Assembly (NCBI GenBank): GCA_947625575.1
Contig: CANQOV010000002.1
Location: forward strand, 1,457 to 65,456
Direction: 5' to 3'
Length of the DNA stretch: 64,000 nucleotides
Source of the DNA: an uncultured Bacilli bacterium
GTDB lineage: Bacteria; Bacillota_I; Bacilli_A; RF39; UBA660
The notes beneath the pieces were generated by a model. The model saw nothing but the letters and a program-made list of their open reading frames with translations. It made no database searches and was not told the DNA's origin. Both the position numbers and the translations under genes were made by a program. The first letter of the stretch is position 1, and each line of letters starts with the position of its first letter. Below, piece after piece: positions 4,415-59,213 of this stretch.

Positions 4415-5716
4415 ATGGATAGAAAAACATCAATTATAATTTTAAGTTATAATAATTTAGAATATACAAAAAGTTGTATAGAAAGTATTTATAAGTATAC
4501 AGAAAAAGATAGTTATGAAATTATTGTCATTGATAATAATTCTATAGACGGCAGTAGAGATTGGCTTTTAGAACAAGATAAGATTAAAGTTATTTTTAAT
4601 AATTTTAATGTAGGGTTTGTCTGTGGTTGTAATCAAGGTATTAATATTGCTAATAAAGATAATGATATTTTACTTTTAAATAATGATACTATTGTTACTA
4701 ATAATTGGTTAAAGAATTTAAAGATATGTTTATATAGTGATAAGTTTATTGGAGCAGTTGGAGCAGTTTGTAATAAAAATGAAAATAGGCAGGGTGTTTC
4801 GTTTAGTTATGATGATTTTGAAACAATGCAAAAATATGCTTTAGAAAATAATGTTTCATCTTCTTACAGGTGGGAAGAGAAAGCTTTTTTAATAGGGTAT
4901 TGTCTTCTTATTAAAAGGGAAGTTATTGATAAAATTGGAGGACTTGATACTTTGTATACACCCGGGTATATCGAAGATAATGATTTGTCTATTAGAATTA
5001 TTAAACTTGGTTATAAGTTAATGCTTTGTCATGATTGTTTTATACATCATTATTTAGGGACACAATTTAGAAAAGATTTATCTAAATTTTATGCTGTTTT
5101 AAATAAAAATAGAGAATATTTTTATAGTAAGTGGGGTTTTAATACTTTTTGTTTTGATGAAGTAAAAGAAGCGTCTTTTGTATTTATTGATAAACCAAAG
5201 AAAATACTAGAACTTGATTGTGGTATTGGTTGTGGTATGCTTGCTTTAAAATATAAGTATTCTTCTTTGGTTGATGGAGTATGTTTTGATGATAAAAAAA
5301 GAGATATTGCTAAACATTTTGGAAAAGTTTTTAAAAGATTGGAAGATGTTTGTGGTAAGTATGACTATATTTTGATTGGGGATATTCTTAAAAAAGTTAA
5401 AAATGTTGATTCTTTTATTGATAATTTAAGAAAAAAATTAACAATTGGTGGCAAAATTGTTGGAGAAATGGATAATTTAATTAGTGTTAAAAATATTAAT
5501 TTATTGTTAAAGGGCAGGGGTAAGTTTTTAAATAATAGAAATAATTATACTATTTTAGATATTAAAGATATTTTTTCTAAAAAGGGTTTTACTTTTAAAT
5601 ATTTTGCTTGGTATAGAAATTTTAATGAAGAAGAGAAAAAGTTATTTGACAGTCTTTTACCATATAATAAAGAAATTAGATATAGTTATTATACTTTTGT
5701 GGTTAGTTATAGTTGA
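4415..5716 (+). CDS. family 2 glycosyltransferase fused to a SAM-methyltransferase-like C-terminal domain
   Basis: N-terminal GT-A signature (IIILSYNN, IIVIDNNSIDGS, NNDTIV, the YIEDNDLS DXD-type region). C-terminal LELDCGIGCGMLAL is a Rossmann SAM-binding motif I. Confidence 0.65.
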   Translation: MDRKTSIIILSYNNLEYTKSCIESIYKYTEKDSYEIIVIDNNSIDGSRDWLLEQDKIKVIFNNFNVGFVCGCNQGINIANKDNDILLLNNDTIVTNNWLKNLKICLYSDKFIGAVGAVCNKNENRQGVSFSYDDFETMQKYALENNVSSSYRWEEKAFLIGYCLLIKREVIDKIGGLDTLYTPGYIEDNDLSIRIIKLGYKLMLCHDCFIHHYLGTQFRKDLSKFYAVLNKNREYFYSKWGFNTFCFDEVKEASFVFIDKPKKILELDCGIGCGMLALKYKYSSLVDGVCFDDKKRDIAKHFGKVFKRLEDVCGKYDYILIGDILKKVKNVDSFIDNLRKKLTIGGKIVGEMDNLISVKNINLLLKGRGKFLNNRNNYTILDIKDIFSKKGFTFKYFAWYRNFNEEEKKLFDSLLPYNKEIRYSYYTFVVSYS

Positions 5717-10833: not shown

Positions 10834-10910
10834 GGTCCGTTGGTGAAGTGGCTTAACACATCACCCTCTCAAGGTGACATACACGGATTCGAATTCCGTA
10901 CGGACTACCA
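10834..10910 (+). tRNA. tRNA-Glu (anticodon CUC)
   Basis: 77-nt cloverleaf. Acceptor GGTCCGT/ACGGACU, anticodon stem TCACC/GGTGA with loop CTCTCAA, T-arm ACGGA-TTCGAAT-TCCGT, and encoded CCA. It is a close paralog of the tRNA-Glu(UUC) at 59137. Confidence 0.8.
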
Positions 10911-42211: not shown

Positions 42212-42240
42212 AGACTTTAGTGAAAACTAAAGTCTTTTTT
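42212..42240 (+). terminator. rho-independent terminator
   Basis: AGACTTTAGT-gaaa-ACTAAAGTCT hairpin plus T6. Confidence 0.65.
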
Positions 42241-42244
42241 GCTT

Positions 42245-42307
42245 GTAAAACTATGTGTAAAATTTATTAGTCAAATGCTTGACAATATATATATATATAT
42301 ATATAAT
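42245..42307 (+). promoter_or_regulatory. promoter cassette copy 1 (TTGACA-(TA)n spacer-TATAAT), 52-bp core repeated at 43724
   Basis: GTAAAACTATGTGTAAAATTTATTAGTCAAATGCTTGACAATATATATA recurs at 43724-43772 with one mismatch. The -35 TTGACA is at 42279-42284, the -10 TATAAT at 42302-42307, and the 17-bp spacer is entirely (AT)n. Confidence 0.65.
42285..42305. repeat. (AT)10 dinucleotide microsatellite forming the promoter spacer
   Basis: atatatatatatatatatata can be read directly from the sequence. Confidence 0.9.
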
Positions 42308-42340
42308 GGAATTATAGAAGATAGGAAGTGTGATGAAAAA

Positions 42341-43453
42341 ATGAATAGAAATTTGACAGAAGAAGAAAAAAAAGAACAGGAAAGAAGAACTTTAGAGGAA
42401 CACAAAAAAAATGTCTTTGACACATTGGAACAAGTTTTTAATGCTGAGACTTGTGGTGAATTAAAACATATTTATGAAAAAATGGTGTCTGTTGGCGGAG
42501 ATTTTCTAGGTTGGGGTGGACGTAGTAAAATTGTTAAAGGTAATAGTGATGCTACTGAAAGATTTGAAAAATTTTTTAGGTCTATGCAAATTGGTAATTG
42601 TGTAGATCCACAAGATTTTGATATGGTCCTTGCTTATTTAAAAGATGCTGGATATAAATATGATTATAATGAATGCCAGGTTAAATATCTTAATTATATG
42701 TATAATTTATATGCTTTTAGTGCTAATAAGGGTTTATCTAATTTCTATGTAGATAGTTTGACTGTTGAAAATCTTGATAAATTAGGAGAATTATCAAGGC
42801 ATACAAGGGAAGACAGAAAAGTTTCAATTAATGACCATGCAATAAATTTAAGTGGTAATGATAGGTCCCCTAATATTTATCTTGCACCTAATAATACTTA
42901 TCGTGTTGAGAACATGATTGCATCGCTTCAAAAATCTCTTGTTGATGCTGAAAAAACATTGCCTGCTTATAGGGAAAAGTATAAGCAAATAGAAGATAAA
43001 TATTATAAGATGTTATTTGACTATAGAAAGAAAAGTGTTTTTGGCAGACTTGTATCACATATTAGAGGAGAATACAAAGAATTAAGGTCAGAATTGACTT
43101 CTATGAAACAAGAAATGGAAAAATTAAAAACTTTGGGCTTAAGTCAAATGACTTCTATACAGAAAGCAAAAAACTTTGAAGAATTAAGAGAAAAAAATGA
43201 TGATGAAAGGGAAAAATTTCAAAAAGAATCAAGGAATTTAGAATATAAGAAAAGAGATGCTGAAAAAGAAATGAAGGAAGGAGACGTGAAAATGAGAACT
43301 GTTGGGAAAATTGATGATGCTTTGCGTGATTTGCGTAATGATTATGAGGCAAATTCAAATTTTGTTTATGGTGAACGAAATTCTGAGCCTTTGTTAAAAC
43401 CTATTGAAGTTCCAGAGCTTTCTGAAGATGAAAATACAGGGAGGTCTAGATAA
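42341..43453 (+). CDS. hypothetical protein, ORFan A (370 aa; N-terminal globular region and a long C-terminal coiled coil)
   Basis: Composition is atypical for the host (richer in R, G, Q and C codons, higher G+C). There is no stop over 1.1 kb. Confidence 0.55.
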   Translation: MNRNLTEEEKKEQERRTLEEHKKNVFDTLEQVFNAETCGELKHIYEKMVSVGGDFLGWGGRSKIVKGNSDATERFEKFFRSMQIGNCVDPQDFDMVLAYLKDAGYKYDYNECQVKYLNYMYNLYAFSANKGLSNFYVDSLTVENLDKLGELSRHTREDRKVSINDHAINLSGNDRSPNIYLAPNNTYRVENMIASLQKSLVDAEKTLPAYREKYKQIEDKYYKMLFDYRKKSVFGRLVSHIRGEYKELRSELTSMKQEMEKLKTLGLSQMTSIQKAKNFEELREKNDDEREKFQKESRNLEYKKRDAEKEMKEGDVKMRTVGKIDDALRDLRNDYEANSNFVYGERNSEPLLKPIEVPELSEDENTGRSR

Positions 43454-43455
43454 AA

Positions 43456-43707
43456 ATGGAAGAATTAAATGAGTTGGTTGAATCTTTTTTAGAGTTAACG
43501 ACAGAAGATCAAAAAGATGAAATTGAAAAAGAGATTAAGGCAATGATTATTGCTTTAAATGGTATTAGTGATGATAAAAGTTTTGTAGAGATTCCAAAAG
43601 TGGAAGATTATGAAAGATATGGTATGATTTATGCTTTATTACATGGTTTAGAATATGAAATTAATAAATTTGTTAAAGATAAGATACCAGAAGAGGATGT
43701 CATGTGA
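43456..43707 (+). CDS. small acidic protein, ORFan B (83 aa)
   Basis: Its start lies 2 nt after the ORFan A stop, with a GGGAGG SD inside the ORFan A 3' end. It is highly acidic and helical. Confidence 0.5.
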   Translation: MEELNELVESFLELTTEDQKDEIEKEIKAMIIALNGISDDKSFVEIPKVEDYERYGMIYALLHGLEYEINKFVKDKIPEEDVM

Positions 43708-43722
43708 CATCTTTTTTTTGTT
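43696..43722 (+). terminator. palindromic terminator GATGTCATGTGACATC + T8 (copy 1 of 2)
   Basis: A perfect 16-bp palindrome followed by T8. An identical 33-bp string recurs at 44799-44831. Confidence 0.6.
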
Positions 43723-43807
43723 AGTAAAACTATGTGTAAAATTTATTAGTTAAATGCTTGACAATATATATACTGGAATTGTAAGGTTATAACATAGGAG
43801 GTTATTT

Positions 43808-44791
43808 ATGGAAAGTAATGTTAGATCTACAGATGATAGCGGAAGATTAAATGGGGTTATTGCTAAACTTGATCAATTATTAACTGAATTAGGTGTTGAT
43901 TCTAAATTCAGAGATAATCCTGCATATCAAGATGTGTTAATGAAAATAAGAGGAGCAATGCCAGTTAGAGATATTGAAATTTTAAGTGCTTTTATTGAAA
44001 ATGGTGTGATTTCTTTTAGCACACTAACAGAGAAACGTCAGCAATGCTATGTCGAAGTAACAGCAGGGCCAAATGGAATTCGTTGTGTTTCTTCTTGCAA
44101 TTTTCCAGATAAATTTGATGAAACAAAAGGAGGATACAGTACTACATATCAAAGTGATATAGTAAATGCCCGTGTTGATTCAAATGGACGTATTGCTGTG
44201 CTTAGTGGCTCAACTTTACTTGATGATACTGGTTTGGTATCTGGTACTATGTGTCGTTCAAATTTTTCTAAAGAAATTTATTCTGCTGAAGGAATTGTAG
44301 TAGAGCATGAGTTAGGGCAAACTAAAGAAGGGAGAATTAATTCTTTTGCGTATTTTGACCGTAATAATTCTCTTGAAATTGCTACCTATCCTGTACATTT
44401 TTATCAAAATGATAATATTTGGAATAATTGTGCTTTTATTTCATCTCTTCAATCTTACAGTAAAGTGCAAAGAAAAAATATTGATACAGCTTCTGTATAT
44501 TCTTTTGATAAAGATAATGATAGTGAAGAGAGAGCTACAGTAGAGCTTGGTGGACCGGATTATAGCCACATGCAAGTGATGAGTGTAGAAAATTATCCAG
44601 ATCAACATGTTATTATACCACCTTTATCAACTGAACGTATTGAAGAAATGGTTTCTTATCAAACAAATCCTAAAGTTCAAGAAGGATTAAGAAAAATGGC
44701 TGTTGGTCGAGAAAATTATTCTTATGATTCTTTGAAAGATCCTACATTTAAATATGTTGGACCTCAAGAACAAGCGGGTGTAAGTAGATAA
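43808..44791 (+). CDS. hypothetical protein, ORFan C (327 aa)
   Basis: AGGAGG SD 7 nt upstream. It is preceded by promoter cassette copy 2 and followed by terminator copy 2. Composition is atypical. Confidence 0.55.
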   Translation: MESNVRSTDDSGRLNGVIAKLDQLLTELGVDSKFRDNPAYQDVLMKIRGAMPVRDIEILSAFIENGVISFSTLTEKRQQCYVEVTAGPNGIRCVSSCNFPDKFDETKGGYSTTYQSDIVNARVDSNGRIAVLSGSTLLDDTGLVSGTMCRSNFSKEIYSAEGIVVEHELGQTKEGRINSFAYFDRNNSLEIATYPVHFYQNDNIWNNCAFISSLQSYSKVQRKNIDTASVYSFDKDNDSEERATVELGGPDYSHMQVMSVENYPDQHVIIPPLSTERIEEMVSYQTNPKVQEGLRKMAVGRENYSYDSLKDPTFKYVGPQEQAGVSR

Positions 44792-44798
44792 TTTAATA

Positions 44799-44825
44799 GA
44801 TGTCATGTGACATCTTTTTTTTGTT
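44799..44825 (+). terminator. palindromic terminator GATGTCATGTGACATC + T8 (copy 2 of 2)
   Basis: Identical to 43696-43722. Confidence 0.6.
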
Positions 44826-45453
44826 AGTAAAGTAAAGTTATTTTTTTATTTATTTCTTTTATTAGTCCGTCATCTTTTAAGGCTTTTATTTCTCTTGCCA
44901 TAGCACTTCTATTTATTGATAGGTAGTCTGCTAGAAATGAGTAAGTAAATGGTAAGTTAAATGATTTACTCATATTTTCTTTGGATAGTTTATTAAAGTA
45001 AGCTAATAGTTTTTCTCTTATTGATCTTTTGGTTAATATTTCTATTCTTATGGTTTGTTCTATTATTTTATCTTTGAAGATATTAAATAAGTTTTCTATT
45101 AGTTTGTTGGTATTTTTATTAGGGTTTTTTATGATATCATCATAGTTTATAAATAATATTTTTGATGTTGTTGTGGCTATTAGAGATGTTTCGTTATTAT
45201 CCATTTGATAGAATATGTCACTAAAGATATCTCCTTGGTTTAAGTGTTCTATTATTGTTCTATCTCCGTTGTAGTCATAACGTACTAAATCTATTTGTCC
45301 TTCTTCAATTATACCTATTAGATTTGAGTTGTTGACGTAAGATGCAATTGTCTTATTTTTTGTAAATATAACTTGGGTTGACTGTAAAGAATTTAAAAGA
45401 TTTTTTTTCTCGTTTTCATCAATTCCTTGAAAAATAAGGGGTTTGTTTAACAT
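44824..45453 (-). CDS. Crp/Fnr-family transcriptional regulator
   Basis: N-terminal cNMP-binding beta-roll (GIIEEGQIDLVRYDYNGDRTIIEHLNQGDIFSD) and a C-terminal HTH (FTYSFLADYLSINRSAMAREIKALKDDGLI). Confidence 0.8.
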   Translation of the reverse strand: MLNKPLIFQGIDENEKKNLLNSLQSTQVIFTKNKTIASYVNNSNLIGIIEEGQIDLVRYDYNGDRTIIEHLNQGDIFSDIFYQMDNNETSLIATTTSKILFINYDDIIKNPNKNTNKLIENLFNIFKDKIIEQTIRIEILTKRSIREKLLAYFNKLSKENMSKSFNLPFTYSFLADYLSINRSAMAREIKALKDDGLIKEINKKITLLY

Positions 45454-45490
45454 AATTTTTTGCTCCTTTTATTTAATTTAATTATATTTT

Positions 45491-45516
45491 AAAAATGTTG
45501 CAATTGCAACATTTTT
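45491..45516. promoter_or_regulatory. perfect 26-bp palindrome AAAAATGTTGCAA|TTGCAACATTTTT in a divergent intergenic region
   Basis: Read directly from the sequence. It lies between the Crp/Fnr gene start (45453) and the nrdD-paralog operon. Confidence 0.5.
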
Positions 45517-45657
45517 ATTTTAAATATTTTGTTATGATTTTCTTGTAAGAATATTTTAGGAAGTTGTGGTGATGTAGTTATAAAAGTTATTAAACGAGAC
45601 GGTAGAGCTGTTGAATATGATAGTGATAAGATAAGAATTGCTATTGGTAAAGCTAAT

Positions 45658-47352
45658 ATGGAACTTCCTGTTGATAAACAAATTTCTAAAGAAAAAATAG
45701 AAGAAATTATAAAGTATGTTGAAAGTTTAAATAAGAAACGGATTTTAGTTGAAGATATTCAAGATATTATCGAACAAAAACTTATGGAATTTGGGAAGTA
45801 TGATTTAGCTAAGATTTATATTATTTATCGCTATACAAGGATGCTTGTTAGGAAAAGTAATACGACTGATGAATCAATATTATCTATTATTAAAAATAGT
45901 GATGATAGCATTATTAAAGAAAAACTTAAAAAAGACTATTTATATGTCTATGAACATAATGATTTAATTGCTACAGAAGTTTCTAAAGATTTAACAAGAA
46001 GAGTACTACTTAGTGAAGATGTTACTAAAAGTATAGATAATGGGGCAATATATTTTCATGATTTAGGTTATTTTATTCAACATTTGATATGTTCTAGTAT
46101 TTTAGATATTAAATATATTTTAGAAAATGATATGTTTGTTCATGGATATAAACTTAAAAAACCAACTGATATTGTTAGTGCTTGCTCTAATTTAGGTAAA
46201 GTTATTTTAGAGTGTGCGTCATCACAAACTAAAGATATAACTATTGATCTTAAATATTTTTTGGATATGTTAGATAAAGATTATGCTTTAGGAATAAAGG
46301 TTTTGTTTGATATTATTAGTTCATTTATCAGTGTTAGAGGGCATGTTGCTATAGTTAATTTTATTTTAAATGTTGAAAGTGAAAAATTAATTAATTTTTA
46401 TCTAGAGTTTTTAAAAGAGTATAGTGTATTTGATGCTGATAAAGAGTATTGTCCTAGATTAATATATGTTCTTGATGAAAATACAAGTGATGTTAATAGT
46501 AAATTTTATAAAGTTACTAAAGCAGTTATTGATTTATCAATGGAAGGTTATCCAATAAATTATTTTTCTAATAAAAAAATGCTTACTTATTATCAGGGTA
46601 AAATGATTTTACCAATTAATTTTAATCGAATGATGTTACCTTATAAAAATAAAGAGGGGGAATATCAAACTTTAGGAAGATTTGATCAGGGTATGGTAAG
46701 TGTTAATTTGAATCAGATTGGATTATCTTGTAGTGATGATGAAGAGTTCTTTAAGTTATTAGATGAGAAGTTAGATATTGCTATTGAAGCTCTTATGAGT
46801 AAATATTTTAATCTTTTAGGAACTGATTGTAATAGTAATGCTGTAGCTTTTAGATATGGAGCAATTATGGTTTGTTTAAATAAAAATATTGATGAGTATC
46901 TAAAAGATAATTATTCTTGTTTATGTTTAGGATTGAGTGGTCTTTATGATTTAGTTACTAATTATAAAAAGATTGATTTTTACAGTGAAGATAGTTTTAA
47001 GTTTATTACTTTAGTTATTAGTTATATAAATAAGAGAATAGAGCTTTTGAGAAAACAAACTAAGATTGGATTTATGGTGGTTTTGGATGATGATTATTTA
47101 GCTAATTTAAATTTTCTTATGAAAGATAAAGAAAATTTGAGTTATAAAGGGGATTTGGTCTATCAGAATTTACCTATTGTTAAGGATATTGATGAGTTAA
47201 GATTTCAAGGTATTATTCAAGACTTAATGAAAGGTAATTGTGTTATAAGACTTGATATAGAAAATAAAGATGTTGATTATCTTATCAAGTACATATATGA
47301 AAATATTTTCTATGTAACTTTGAAAACTGGCAATGAAATTAAGGAGGAGTAA
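45658..47352 (+). CDS. NrdD-like paralog, catalytically degenerate (ATP-cone homology continues upstream to ~45574 with no in-frame canonical start)
   Basis: Aligns to the N-terminal two thirds of the genuine NrdD. ATP-cone ends YRYTRMLVRKSNTTDESI versus YRYKRQLVREGNTTDKNI, and the FHD region is shared. It lacks the CMGCRS thiyl-radical Cys region, the Zn ribbon and the C-terminal RTCGY glycyl-radical motif. Confidence 0.65.
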   Translation: MELPVDKQISKEKIEEIIKYVESLNKKRILVEDIQDIIEQKLMEFGKYDLAKIYIIYRYTRMLVRKSNTTDESILSIIKNSDDSIIKEKLKKDYLYVYEHNDLIATEVSKDLTRRVLLSEDVTKSIDNGAIYFHDLGYFIQHLICSSILDIKYILENDMFVHGYKLKKPTDIVSACSNLGKVILECASSQTKDITIDLKYFLDMLDKDYALGIKVLFDIISSFISVRGHVAIVNFILNVESEKLINFYLEFLKEYSVFDADKEYCPRLIYVLDENTSDVNSKFYKVTKAVIDLSMEGYPINYFSNKKMLTYYQGKMILPINFNRMMLPYKNKEGEYQTLGRFDQGMVSVNLNQIGLSCSDDEEFFKLLDEKLDIAIEALMSKYFNLLGTDCNSNAVAFRYGAIMVCLNKNIDEYLKDNYSCLCLGLSGLYDLVTNYKKIDFYSEDSFKFITLVISYINKRIELLRKQTKIGFMVVLDDDYLANLNFLMKDKENLSYKGDLVYQNLPIVKDIDELRFQGIIQDLMKGNCVIRLDIENKDVDYLIKYIYENIFYVTLKTGNEIKEE

Positions 47353-47354
47353 AT

Positions 47355-49517
47355 ATGCAAGTAATTAAAAGAGATGGAAGAAAACAAAAGTTTGATAAGG
47401 AAAAGATTGTAACTGCGGTTAGTAAGGCTTTTATTAGTGTTGACGGAGAATTAACAGATAATTTTAAGAAAAAGGCTATTGAGATAGCAGATTTTATTGA
47501 ACAACTTGATAAGACTTTGACAGTTGAAGAGATTCAAGATATTGTTGAAGATAAGCTTATGGCAAGTAATAGAAAAGATGTTGCAAGAGAGTATATAAGA
47601 TATAGATATAAAAGACAATTAGTTAGAGAGGGTAATACTACTGATAAAAACATTTTTGAATTGCTTAATGGTACAAATGAGTATTGGAATAGTGAAAATG
47701 CTAATAAAAATGCTAAAGTTGTCACAGTTCAAAGAGATTATATAGCAGGTATTACAAGTACAGATATTACAAAGAGATTCTTATTGCCTAAAGATGTAGT
47801 GGAAGCTCATGAAGAGGGTATTATACATTTCCATGATGCTGATTATTTTGCTCAAAATGCTTTACATAATTGTGAACTTATTAATTTGCAAGATATGTTA
47901 GAAAATGGAACAATGATAAATAATATTTTGATAGAAAAACCACATAGATTTTTAACTGCTGCTACTATAGCAACACAGATAATAACAGCAGTTACATCTT
48001 CTAGTTATGGTGGTGCTACTATTACGCTTACGGCTTTGGCTCCATTTGTAAGAAGTAGTTATGAAAGATATTATAAAAAGTATAAAGATCGTGGTGAATC
48101 AAAAGAAAACTGTGAAAAATATGCTAAAGAAGATACTAAGAAAGAAATAGAAGACGGTGTTCAAACATTTAATTATCAAGTTAATTCTATGACAAATACT
48201 AATGGTCAATCTCCTTTCTTATCTGTATTTATGTATCTTGGAGAAACTGAAGAATATAAAGATGAACTTGCTTTGATTATTGAAGAGTTTTTAAAACAGA
48301 GAATTGTAGGATTAAAAAATGAAAAAGGTGTTTATATTACACAAGCTTTTCCTAAACTTTTATATGTTTTGGAAGAAGATAATATTAAAGAGGGAAGTAA
48401 GTATTGGTATTTAACTGAACTTGCTGCAAAGTGTACTGCTAAAAGATTAGTTCCTGATTATATTTCTGAAAAAGTTATGAAAGAAAATAAGATTGATCAA
48501 AATGGAAATGGTCAATGCTATCCTTGTATGGGTTGTAGAAGTTTCTTAACACCATATGTTGATAGTGAGGGAAAACCTAAATATTATGGTAGATTTAATC
48601 AAGGTGTTGTTACTATATCTTTACCAGACGTAGCATTATCTTCAAAGAAAGATATGAATAAGTTCTGGGAAATTTTAGATGAGAGATTAGAGTTATGTCA
48701 TAAAGCTTTACAGATAAGACATGAAAGACTTAGTCATGCTTTAAGTGATGTTGCACCTATATTATGGCAACATGGAGCATTAGCAAGACTTGAAAAGGGA
48801 GAAAGTATACATCCACTTTTACATAATGGATATTCTACAATATCTTTAGGATATGCTGGACTTTATGAGTGTGTTAAGTATATGACAGGAAATTCTCATA
48901 CTGATAATGGCGTAGGAAAAGATTTTGCTATGAAAGTTATGCAAAGATTAAATGATAAGTGTAAAGAGTGGAAAAAAGAAGAGAAGATAGATTATAGTGT
49001 CTATGGTACACCAATTGAAAGTACTACTTATAAATTTGCTAAGTGTTTAAGAAAAAGATTTGGTATTATTCCGGGTATTACAGATAGAGATTATGTTACT
49101 AATTCTTATCATGTTCCAGTATTTGAAGAGATTGATCCATTTACAAAGTTAGCTTTGGAAAGTGAGTTCCAAAAACTTAGTCCCGGTGGTGCAATTAGTT
49201 ATATTGAGTGTGCAGATTTAACAAACAATATTCCAGCAGTTTTGGAAGTTATTAAGTTTATTTATGATCATATTATGTATGCAGAGTTAAATACTAAGTC
49301 TGATTATTGTCAAGTATGTGGATATGACGGAGAAATTAAAATTATCGATAAAGACGGTAAATTAGATTGGCAATGTCCTAATTGTGGAAATATGGATCAT
49401 GCGAAGATGAACGTTGCAAGACGTACTTGTGGATATATTGGTACTAATTTCTTTAACCAAGGACGTACTGATGAGATTAGAAATAGATATGTTCATTTAG
49501 ATAATCACGAGGCATAG
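47355..49517 (+). CDS. nrdD: anaerobic ribonucleoside-triphosphate reductase (class III RNR)
   Basis: ATP-cone MQVIKRDGRKQKFDKEKI, and a C-terminal Zn ribbon CQVCGY ... CPNCGN. Glycyl-radical motif RRTCGYIG is present. Confidence 0.9.
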   Translation: MQVIKRDGRKQKFDKEKIVTAVSKAFISVDGELTDNFKKKAIEIADFIEQLDKTLTVEEIQDIVEDKLMASNRKDVAREYIRYRYKRQLVREGNTTDKNIFELLNGTNEYWNSENANKNAKVVTVQRDYIAGITSTDITKRFLLPKDVVEAHEEGIIHFHDADYFAQNALHNCELINLQDMLENGTMINNILIEKPHRFLTAATIATQIITAVTSSSYGGATITLTALAPFVRSSYERYYKKYKDRGESKENCEKYAKEDTKKEIEDGVQTFNYQVNSMTNTNGQSPFLSVFMYLGETEEYKDELALIIEEFLKQRIVGLKNEKGVYITQAFPKLLYVLEEDNIKEGSKYWYLTELAAKCTAKRLVPDYISEKVMKENKIDQNGNGQCYPCMGCRSFLTPYVDSEGKPKYYGRFNQGVVTISLPDVALSSKKDMNKFWEILDERLELCHKALQIRHERLSHALSDVAPILWQHGALARLEKGESIHPLLHNGYSTISLGYAGLYECVKYMTGNSHTDNGVGKDFAMKVMQRLNDKCKEWKKEEKIDYSVYGTPIESTTYKFAKCLRKRFGIIPGITDRDYVTNSYHVPVFEEIDPFTKLALESEFQKLSPGGAISYIECADLTNNIPAVLEVIKFIYDHIMYAELNTKSDYCQVCGYDGEIKIIDKDGKLDWQCPNCGNMDHAKMNVARRTCGYIGTNFFNQGRTDEIRNRYVHLDNHEA

Positions 49518-49522
49518 TTTTT

Positions 49523-50020
49523 ATGAGATATGCCCAAATACGTAGTATGGATATCAGCAATGGAGAGGGTTTAGGAATAGCGTTATTTACAAATGGTTGT
49601 AGATTTCATTGCTATAATTGTTTTAATAGTGAGTTATGGGATGTTAATGGTGGTAAAGCTTGGGATAAAAAGCAAGAAGAATACTTTTTATCCTTGGCTA
49701 AGCCAGATTATATTAAAAGAATTTCTATTTTAGGAGGAGAGCCTTTCCTTGATGAAAATTTAGATGATTTGTATAATCTTTTGAAACATACTAAAGAAAT
49801 GTATAAAGATAAACAAATTTGGATATATTCTGGTTATTTATATGAAGAGTTGTTAAAGAAAGCTAGAAATATTTTAGATTATTGTGATGTTTTAGTAGAC
49901 GGAAAGTACGTTGATAGCTTAAGAGATTATAAATTAAAGTTTAGAGGATCTTCTAATCAAAGGGTTATTGATGTTAAGAAATCACTTAAGGAAAATAAAG
50001 TAATTTTATATTTAGATTAG
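49523..50020 (+). CDS. nrdG: anaerobic RNR-activating protein (radical SAM)
   Basis: Radical-SAM-like Cys cluster (FTNGCRFHCYNCFN) in a 165-aa protein. Confidence 0.85.
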   Translation: MRYAQIRSMDISNGEGLGIALFTNGCRFHCYNCFNSELWDVNGGKAWDKKQEEYFLSLAKPDYIKRISILGGEPFLDENLDDLYNLLKHTKEMYKDKQIWIYSGYLYEELLKKARNILDYCDVLVDGKYVDSLRDYKLKFRGSSNQRVIDVKKSLKENKVILYLD

Positions 50021-50030
50021 GGAGTAATTT

Positions 50031-50489
50031 ATGAAGTTAAGAGGATTTGAAATAGTAAAAGGGTATGAGGATAAAGATATTCATATGCCTGTTAGGAAGA
50101 CTAAGAATGCAGCAGGATATGATGTTGAAGCAGCAGAAGATGTAGTTATTCCTATGTATGAAAAAGGAATTAAACCAACGCTTATTCCTACTGGACTTAA
50201 AGCTTATTGTCAAGATGATGAGTATTTTATGTTAGTTAATAGAAGCAGTGGACCAAAAAAAGGTTTTGTTATGAGTAATAGTATTGGGATTGTTGATGCT
50301 GATTATTATGGTAATGAAAGTAATGACGGTCATTTCTATTTTCAATATTTTAATTTTTCTGATCATGATTTGGAAGTTAAAAAAGGTGATGTGATTGGAC
50401 AAGTTATTTTTCAAAAGTACTTGGTAGTTGATGATGATATGGCAAATGGAGTTAGAACTGGAGGATTCGGATCAACTGATAAGAAGTGA
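50031..50489 (+). CDS. dut: dUTP diphosphatase
   Basis: dUTPase motifs (AAGYDV, NRSSG, GIVDADYYG, RTGGFGSTD). Confidence 0.8.
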   Translation: MKLRGFEIVKGYEDKDIHMPVRKTKNAAGYDVEAAEDVVIPMYEKGIKPTLIPTGLKAYCQDDEYFMLVNRSSGPKKGFVMSNSIGIVDADYYGNESNDGHFYFQYFNFSDHDLEVKKGDVIGQVIFQKYLVVDDDMANGVRTGGFGSTDKK

Positions 50490-50491
50490 TT

Positions 50492-50518
50492 GATGCTACT
50501 AGCATCTTTTTTTTGTTT
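50492..50518 (+). terminator. rho-independent terminator
   Basis: GATGCTA-ct-AGCATC hairpin plus T8. Confidence 0.6.
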
Positions 50519-58970: not shown

Positions 58971-59047
<77 letters not shown>

Positions 59048-59051
59048 TTAT

Positions 59052-59128
59052 GCCTCAATAGCTCAGTTGGTTAGAGCATTTGACTGTTAATCAAAGGGTC
59101 ACAGGTTCGAGTCCTGTTTGGGGCGCCA
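59052..59128 (+). tRNA. tRNA-Asn (anticodon GUU)
   Basis: 77-nt cloverleaf with anticodon loop CTGTTAA and encoded CCA. Confidence 0.8.
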
Positions 59129-59136
59129 TTTTTTTT

Positions 59137-59213
59137 GGCCAGTTGGTGAAGTGGCTTAACACACTGCCCTTTCACGGCAGCACTCACGGATTCGAATTCC
59201 GTACTGGTCACCA
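59137..59213 (+). tRNA. tRNA-Glu (anticodon UUC)
   Basis: 77-nt cloverleaf with anticodon stem CTGCC/GGCAG, loop CTTTCAC and encoded CCA. Confidence 0.85.

Follow-up and report, generated by a model that had tools for sequence, protein, structure and literature searches.

A predicted non-catalytic NrdD that keeps its ATP-cone, encoded ahead of an active class III ribonucleotide reductase in an uncultured Bacilli bacterium

The locus considered here lies in the genome of an uncultured Bacilli bacterium of the RF39 lineage (GenBank assembly GCA_947625575.1), on a 64,000-nucleotide stretch of contig CANQOV010000002.1 (positions 1,457 to 65,456) that we call the window and to which coordinates refer unless another locus is named. 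Directly upstream of the genes for the class III ribonucleotide reductase (RNR) NrdD and its activase NrdG, an open reading frame (ORF) encodes a second NrdD-like protein, predicted to be catalytically dead, and a gene for a Crp/Fnr-family regulator diverges from the group (Table 1). The complete NrdD of this operon scores 902 bits against the NCBIfam model NF006732, for a cut-off of 657. The dead ORF stops 2 nt ahead of the nrdD start in the window, and in a syntenic sister lineage with the same gene order and the same promoter palindrome (loci L001 and L091-L102) the two genes overlap. This arrangement is consistent with cotranscription of the dead gene with nrdD-nrdG-dut from the promoter that bears the palindrome.

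Table 1. Features of the nrdD region, in window coordinates.
Feature	Position	Strand	Basis
Crp/Fnr-family regulator, 209 aa, no cysteines, divergent	44824..45453	-	Pfam cNMP_binding + HTH_Crp_2
Palindrome core TGTTGCAATTGCAACA, candidate operator, inside a 28-nt perfect palindrome (45490-45517)	45496..45511	.	sequence
Candidate extended -10 element TGTTATGAT	45530..45538	+	sequence reading
Shine-Dalgarno (SD)-like AGGAAG, 8 nt, ATG-TAG start-stop in the +1 frame; displaced canonical start	45558..45577	+	identical in L088, L089, L090
Dead NrdD-like ORF, 592 codons of homology, stop TAA 47350-47352, open from 45538	45574..47352	+	
ATP-cone domain	45580..45840	+	Pfam PF03477; alignment to S. thermophilus NrdD
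First canonical in-frame start of the dead ORF, ATG; product 564 aa	45658..45660	+	
SD AAGGAGG of the real nrdD, within the final codons of the dead ORF	47341..47347	+	
Functional class III RNR NrdD, 720 aa, separate subclade	47355..49517	+	NRDD 2e-183 + Gly_radical
NrdG activase	49523..50020	+	
dUTPase, last gene of the operon	50031..50489	+	synteny with L001, L091 and 708-type operons
Terminator-like hairpin + T-run	50492..50516	+	

Using Pfam, we identified in the dead ORF an ATP-cone (PF03477; E = 1.1e-19, 71.1 bits for a gathering score of 25.8, residues 3-89 counted from 45574) and a match to NRDD (PF13597; E = 3.1e-34, model positions 12-502 of 562); the same search did not find Gly_radical. 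The ORF represents a whole NrdD minus about 75 C-terminal residues, or about 90% of the enzyme, shortened by in-frame internal deletions of ~34 and ~12 amino acids (aa) plus smaller ones, and it reaches the Zn ribbon, where the original prediction had aligned it with the N-terminal two thirds only. Its C-terminal end, ...YVTLKTGNEIKEE (also given as ...IKYIYENIFYVTLKTGNEIKEE), falls at the exact onset of the Zn ribbon, which the real enzymes start at the matching point with ...IYDNIQYAEFNTKSDYCHVCG. The Zn ribbon and the RxCGY glycyl-radical motif are both missing, and no remnants of the Zn ribbon or of the glycyl-radical domain were found 3' of the stop.

The catalytic residues were mapped with a 15-sequence alignment and a PDB profile search including T4 and S. 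thermophilus NrdD. The second active-site cysteine (equivalent to T4 C79), found within FNCC in real NrdD, is a serine in the dead protein (LICSS), the thiyl-radical cysteine of the finger loop (T4 C290, in PMGCRS) is a phenylalanine (LPINFN), and the equivalent of T4 N311 is an aspartate (GRFDQG, for GRFNQG in real NrdD). Unrelated residues occupy the places of the Asn-X-Asn (NxN) flap, the role of which is described in PMC12662201, and of the GTPAE substrate-phosphate loop (PMC11226230), and loop 2 is degenerate. This comparison with T4 NrdD, suggested earlier as a check, thus shows the catalytic cysteine to be lost, and the domain that carries the radical glycine is absent. The NCBIfam scores also stay under their cut-offs (233.5 for 657 with NF006732, 98 for 326 with TIGR02487). 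With the glycyl-radical domain and the Zn ribbon missing, and with both active-site cysteines, the NxN flap and the phosphate loop lost as well, the ORF product is predicted to be a non-catalytic derivative of NrdD, in line with what had been proposed.

An AlphaFold model of the dead protein (predicted local distance difference test, pLDDT, 73) matched the class III RNR structure 9DCA in Foldseek (E = 5e-31) and gave template modelling (TM) scores of 0.66-0.72 against T4 NrdD; according to this model, the class III RNR fold is retained, barrel included. A retained barrel is what could be expected if the protein were still an enzyme, supplied with a separately encoded glycyl-radical module or performing some other chemistry. 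We attach almost no credence to this idea, as the thiyl cysteine, the second cysteine, the NxN flap and the phosphate loop have been lost to different residues in different copies of the dead gene (see below), and a free-standing ORF for a glycyl-radical domain was looked for in the window and not found.

The ATP-cone, also announced by the original prediction, is in a very different state. Residues K7, R8, I20, Q63 and Y82 of the dead protein align with K19, R20, I32, Q79 and Y98 of S. thermophilus NrdD (StNrdD), which contact ATP/dATP (PMC12662201), and the dead protein would accordingly be expected to bind these nucleotides. Among the 30 cone columns that are invariant in real enzymes, each of 20 dead copies has altered none or one, and the window copy keeps 29.

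These dead copies, at least 20 in number, come from gut Firmicutes metagenomes and were collected by protein search and by a scan of species-representative genomes (GTDB; at least 80 loci) followed by ORF calling and phmmer annotation. Most are 630-660 aa long and stop no more than a few residues from where the Zn ribbon would begin, and no glycyl-radical-domain remnant follows the stop in any dead copy examined. The window ORF belongs with them, being a homolog of the NrdD subclade of ~708 aa (hereafter 708-type) that ends before the Zn ribbon, has lost the catalytic motifs and has kept the cone. In place of the thiyl cysteine, the dead copies have S, E, D, N, L, G, Y or F; in the same data, all 72 live 708-type homologs keep both PMGCRS and FNCC. 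A full-length dead NrdD of 705 aa, found in an uncultured Bacilli metagenome-assembled genome (MAG; CANQQK010000010.1, L053, 1943-4060), retains the Zn ribbon, has RYHDL for RTCGY, Tyr for the thiyl Cys and FNSS for FNCC, and is followed by dut, with no nrdG; judged by its motifs, it is a different route to the same, presumably non-catalytic, state. In the dead copies of L011, L030 and L057 the loss of catalytic cysteines is incomplete, and these three and L053 look like separate, younger events. In a neighbour-joining tree, 12 of 13 dead copies group together, on long branches for which common ancestry and long-branch attraction are inseparable. BLAST nearest neighbours were considered as a sign of independent origins and rejected as such, since the faster evolution of dead copies relative to live ones makes them uninformative. 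One dead copy, P0037, exceeds the NCBIfam equivalog cut-off.

The position of the dead gene relative to an active reductase differs between loci. The order crp-dead-nrdD-nrdG is found in the window, L001, L004 and L033, and crp-nrdD-nrdG-dead in L062 and L065. The tandem arrangement that was to be looked for in relatives is present in L001, L004, L033, L062 and L065, and it is lacking in L002, L005, L006 and L057, the dead copies of which have no adjoining nrdD-nrdG. Because of these four loci, a role that depends on an active NrdD next door would not be general. This bears on the proposal that the dead protein serves the active NrdD as a permanently inactive partner, in a hetero-oligomer like yeast Rnr2-Rnr4, with half-of-sites behaviour or dATP-dependent cone-cone contacts. 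Its probable cotranscription with an active NrdD in the window and in the five tandem loci would suit such a subunit, as would the conservation of the cone and of core positions ~421-520 (708-type numbering); P. copri NrdD (PcNrdD) moreover forms dimers in which one monomer is active and the other inactive, and with dATP it assembles into cone-mediated tetramers (PMC11226230). The dead protein is, however, only 27-28% identical to the co-resident NrdD, its loop 2 is degenerate and several dead copies lack an adjoining active NrdD, and we judge a partner subunit to be unlikely.

The same low identity bears on the origin of the gene, which had been described as a paralog by duplication of the adjoining nrdD. 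This description does not hold: the dead protein is 27-28% identical to the adjoining NrdD versus 35-40% to the 708-type subclade, and live 708-type and live 720-type NrdD are 52% identical to each other. Among the loci listed, live 708-type nrdD genes of Clostridia and Bacilli MAGs are nearly always arranged as crp(divergent)-nrdD-nrdG(-dut), and the crp and dut genes of the window are closest to those of 708-type loci in MAGs labelled 'uncultured Bacilli/Tenericutes'. Given this resemblance of crp and dut, the dead gene probably sits in the original slot of a 708-type nrdD and the 720-aa nrdD is probably the incomer, a conclusion that we consider moderately secure.

The region between crp and nrdD carries a feature of its own. 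Of 66 intergenic regions between crp and nrdD, about 45 contain variants of TGTTGC-N4-GCAACA, with live and dead nrdD alike, and the window has the perfect form, identical in L001 (3628-3643). Its centre lies ~41.5 bp upstream of the transcription start deduced from the candidate extended -10 element, and the palindrome overlaps the -35 of the crp promoter in the window. A divergent gene for a Crp-like protein adjoins 708-type nrdD in nearly every locus, whether the nrdD is live or dead, and this protein is the candidate binder of the palindrome, which has the look of an nrdD regulon element not described before and different from NrdR boxes. In L005 (5258-5899), the Crp-like gene beside the dead NrdD P0004 is split into ORFs of 92 and 106 aa, owing either to a frameshift or to faulty assembly; P0004 itself is intact.

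We then considered whether the dead gene is under selection, as the original prediction had argued from its intact frame. The dead copies were scored on the 294 columns with an invariance of at least 98% across 174 live enzymes: 8-35% of these columns are altered in the dead copies and 55% in the window copy. The changes are very unevenly spread. No fewer than 71 columns are unaltered in all 20 dead copies (2.7 expected under uniform relaxation), and 41 are altered in at least 10 of them (0.5 expected). The columns lost repeatedly are those of the NxN flap, FNCC, TPAF, PMGCRS, GTPAESLCY and NSYH, whereas, beside the cone, the helix that follows the connector (QRDxIAGEVSxDLTKRxLLPEKI) and the core at 708-type positions ~421-520 are conserved in the dead copies. 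Outside the cone, 42-88% of the invariant columns are altered in the window copy. The only sign of a pseudogene in this copy is the lesion at its start codon, described below, and its decay is strongly non-uniform. According to a neutral-substitution simulation, amino acid changes of 10%, 35% and 55% would be accompanied by ~8, 31 and 61 nonsense hits; the window frame has no internal stop over 592 codons.

The sister lineage, which is the closest syntenic relative and is known from human-gut metagenome contigs only, provides a more direct measure. Compared with the window, it is 88% identical in nrdD, 54% in fmt, 42% in crp and 38% in the dead gene (70% in the cone and 32% in the rest). Across 12 contigs of the sister species, the polymorphic codons of the dead gene comprise 20 synonymous and 7 nonsynonymous ones (S = 370, N = 1520), giving a ratio of nonsynonymous to synonymous polymorphism (pN/pS) of 0.05-0.13, to be compared with 0.03 for live nrdD, 0.13 for nrdG and 0.17 for fmt. 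The dead gene is under purifying selection in this lineage. The dead protein of the sister species (P0121-P0134) has a variable C-terminal tail, for total lengths of 644, 640, 639 or 635 aa; the differences begin in a stretch rich in lysine (and A-rich in the DNA) that either adjoins the start codon of nrdD or overlaps it (L001, ~5600-5633).

These data also bear on the possibility that the ORF has no protein function and is kept open because nonsense mutations would be polar on, or would uncouple, the essential nrdD-nrdG. The layout lends itself to this idea, since the stop is 2 nt before the nrdD start, the SD of nrdD lies inside the dead ORF and the genes overlap in the sister lineage. Such a constraint would nevertheless not conserve amino acids, as the pN/pS of the sister lineage requires, nor keep the cone nearly invariant while the remainder drifts; the dead copies of L002, L005, L006 and L057 have no downstream nrdD-nrdG to protect, and in the window a strong SD serves nrdD itself, although the dead ORF is without a canonical start. 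The idea is disfavoured and we hold it to be very improbable.

The start of the window ORF is anomalous. The frame is open from 45538 to 47352, an in-frame TGA lies ahead of it at 45535, and the first in-frame ATG, GTG or TTG is the ATG at 45658, which on reading the sequence has no good SD upstream and the product of which would miss the cone hairpin, helix 1 and residues K7, R8 and I20. The ATG that follows the AGGAAG, at 45572 (8 nt away, not the 9 nt given earlier), is in the +1 frame relative to the dead ORF and directly meets a TAG, as had been pointed out; GTG 45566 and GTG 45569 share its frame, and TTG 45564 runs into a TGA. The ancestral Met codon reads ATA in the window lineage (45580) and in the sister lineage alike. 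In the sister lineage, an in-frame GTG three codons before this ATA provides the start (MVIIKVIKRDG) in 12 of 12 contigs; in the window, there is one nucleotide too few between ATG 45572 and ATA 45580. All dead copies outside the clade formed by the window and sister lineages have an ATG with a good SD.

It had been suggested that the missing G could be a sequencing error, and one restored G would indeed yield MVVIKVIKRDG, very close to the start of the sister protein. However, the 17-mer GTGGTGATGTAGTTATA is identical in three more independent SPAdes/Illumina metagenome assemblies (L088, L089 and L090, from samples ERZ27249389, ERZ27249395 and ERZ27249386), and the site is not a long homopolymer; a further assembly, L007, spans only 45867-48548, with the start region outside. 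Since these three assemblies from different samples carry the identical sequence, the 1-nt loss is genuine, and an assembly or sequencing error is scarcely credible. Two other ways around the lesion were examined and rejected. Genetic code 4 (TGA = Trp), which might have lengthened the ORF upstream, gives no sensible extension, and 5 of 47 long ORFs end in TGA and 87 TGG codons are present. A programmed frameshift at ATG-TAG would need a slippery site at which fMet-tRNA could re-pair, and none is apparent by sequence reasoning. A cone-bearing product would then need a weak, non-canonical initiation at ATA 45580 or ATT 45589, possibly assisted by GGTGAT (45568-45573), which on our reading is complementary to the 16S 3' tail and has GGTGGT as its counterpart in the sister lineage.

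It is possible, although we think it doubtful, that the window copy is now a pseudogene, functional until recently, in which the 1-nt loss ended the cone-bearing protein and stops have not yet accumulated. Every canonical start near the SD meets a stop at once, the lesion is present in every assembly that covers it, ATG 45658 has no SD and would give a product without K7, R8 and I20, and this is the most decayed copy known, other dead copies outside the clade having an ATG and a good SD. On the other side, only one of the 30 invariant cone columns has changed, the 28 codons ahead of ATG 45658 are also intact, and the ATA at the ancestral Met in both lineages, with the GGTGAT/GGTGGT match to the anti-SD, leaves room for weak initiation. 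As the cone codons are intact, including these 28, any inactivation of the window copy would be recent.

We favour, with a probability of about 0.6, the reading that the ORF is a pseudoenzyme derived from the probable former 708-type NrdD of the operon and is most likely an ATP/dATP-binding regulatory protein. The column pattern, the pN/pS of the sister species, the nonsense simulation and a between-species ratio of nonsynonymous to synonymous substitution (dN/dS) of 0.14-0.39, taken together, exclude a plain pseudogene, and an ORF kept open solely against polarity is likewise excluded. The sensor role that had been called plausible is the one that best fits the pattern of conservation. In such a scenario, the active 720-aa NrdD of the other subclade would supply catalysis from its downstream position, while the old copy would have shed its catalytic parts and stayed folded, with the cone and the neighbouring core helix strongly constrained. 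The dead gene would be transcribed with nrdD-nrdG-dut from the promoter carrying the palindrome of the divergent Crp/Fnr-type regulator, and a nucleotide-dependent rearrangement of the cone, or an oligomerisation, would be relayed to a partner, for which the active NrdD, NrdG and the Crp-like regulator are candidates. An association with the active NrdD through the cone would have its model in the dATP-induced tetramers and the monomer asymmetry of PcNrdD. In the window genome, after the 1-nt loss, the cone-bearing product might be made by weak initiation at the ATA or the ATT; otherwise the inactivation would be very recent. More broadly, and more tentatively, gut Firmicutes may repeatedly have made of a displaced NrdD a stand-alone ATP/dATP sensor that, by a conformational or oligomeric switch of the cone, regulates the active RNR, its activase or a Crp-type regulator, an extension in which we place limited confidence.

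Several observations weigh against the favoured reading. The dN/dS values are upper bounds only, dS being saturated at 0.85-1.75. The polymorphism data are those of the sister species, the other recovered assemblies of the window species being ~99.9% identical to the window. The window copy is the most degenerate of the dead copies, with several in-frame deletions and no canonical start before the cone, and it may be in the course of being lost. A divergent crp is also found in some 720-type operons, and the identity of the former resident NrdD is deduced from the similarity of crp and dut alone. Finally, the dead copies of L002, L005, L006 and L057 stand apart from any nrdD-nrdG.

Compared with class III NrdD of known structure (S. 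thermophilus 9D3X, phage T4 1H78, P. copri 8P23), the dead protein has the same N-terminal cone, contact residues, connector helix and ten-stranded barrel, in the same nrdG/dut operon context and with a Crp-type operator as for live 708-type enzymes; unlike them, it has neither Zn ribbon nor glycyl-radical domain, and its cysteines, flap, loop 2 and GTPAE are degenerate. Non-catalytic homologs are known for class I RNR, namely yeast Rnr4 and the herpesvirus R1 homologs UL45 of human cytomegalovirus (HCMV) and M45 of murine cytomegalovirus (MCMV). The case is alike in that an RNR fold remains under selection after catalytic loss and is reused non-catalytically, but those proteins are of class I and belong to eukaryotes or viruses, whereas the present one is a bacterial class III alpha subunit in which the allosteric cone is conserved.

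NrdR is the ATP-cone transcriptional repressor of nrd genes (PMC9110341). If the dead protein is a sensor, it would resemble NrdR as a non-enzymatic reader of the ATP/dATP ratio that uses a cone and acts on deoxyribonucleotide supply. It is nonetheless not an NrdR: NrdR is a protein of ~150 aa with an N-terminal Zn-ribbon DNA-binding domain and recognises NrdR boxes, whereas the dead protein has no Zn ribbon and no DNA-binding domain, starts with the cone followed by an NrdD core, and lies near a box of Crp type. A fused ATP-cone is also carried by the NrdB of Leeuwenhoekiella blandensis (LbNrdB), where it acts through nucleotide-driven oligomerisation (PMC5794259; PDB 5OLK), and 5OLK is among the PDB matches of the dead protein. 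This fusion shows the cone to be a portable module; that of LbNrdB regulates an active subunit, whereas the carrier is catalytically dead here. In our literature searches, no NrdD that is dead or truncated, or that acts as a pseudoenzyme, was found to have been described.

The wider surroundings of the locus can be summarised briefly. The window has a G+C content of 26%. Upstream of the crp gene (42239-44791) are three ORFs on the + strand (404, 83 and 327 aa), the first of which is rich in lysine and glutamate. A cluster of tRNA genes, Ile-GAT, Asn-GTT and Glu-TTC, is found at 58971-59213, and separate genes for tRNA-Glu(CTC) and tRNA-Ser(GCT) at 10834 and 37612. An Rfam search gave no match near the locus, and the PADLOC defence models gave no match.

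In our view, the most interesting result extends beyond the window and is the group of putative NrdD pseudoenzymes that preserve the cone. If the favoured reading is true, these proteins would represent a third use of the ATP-cone besides active RNR subunits and NrdR, the first bacterial class III RNR pseudoenzyme as far as the literature searches showed, and, on the more tentative broader reading, an undescribed protein-level counterpart of NrdR. The proteins P0120/P0121, together with the active neighbour, would offer a testable system for the relay of dATP/ATP sensing to partners. A second and separate lead is offered by the Crp-type box, conserved ahead of clostridial nrdD operons. Dead copies are likely to be annotated as 'anaerobic ribonucleoside-triphosphate reductase', with the consequence that the RNR capacity of gut MAGs would be miscounted.

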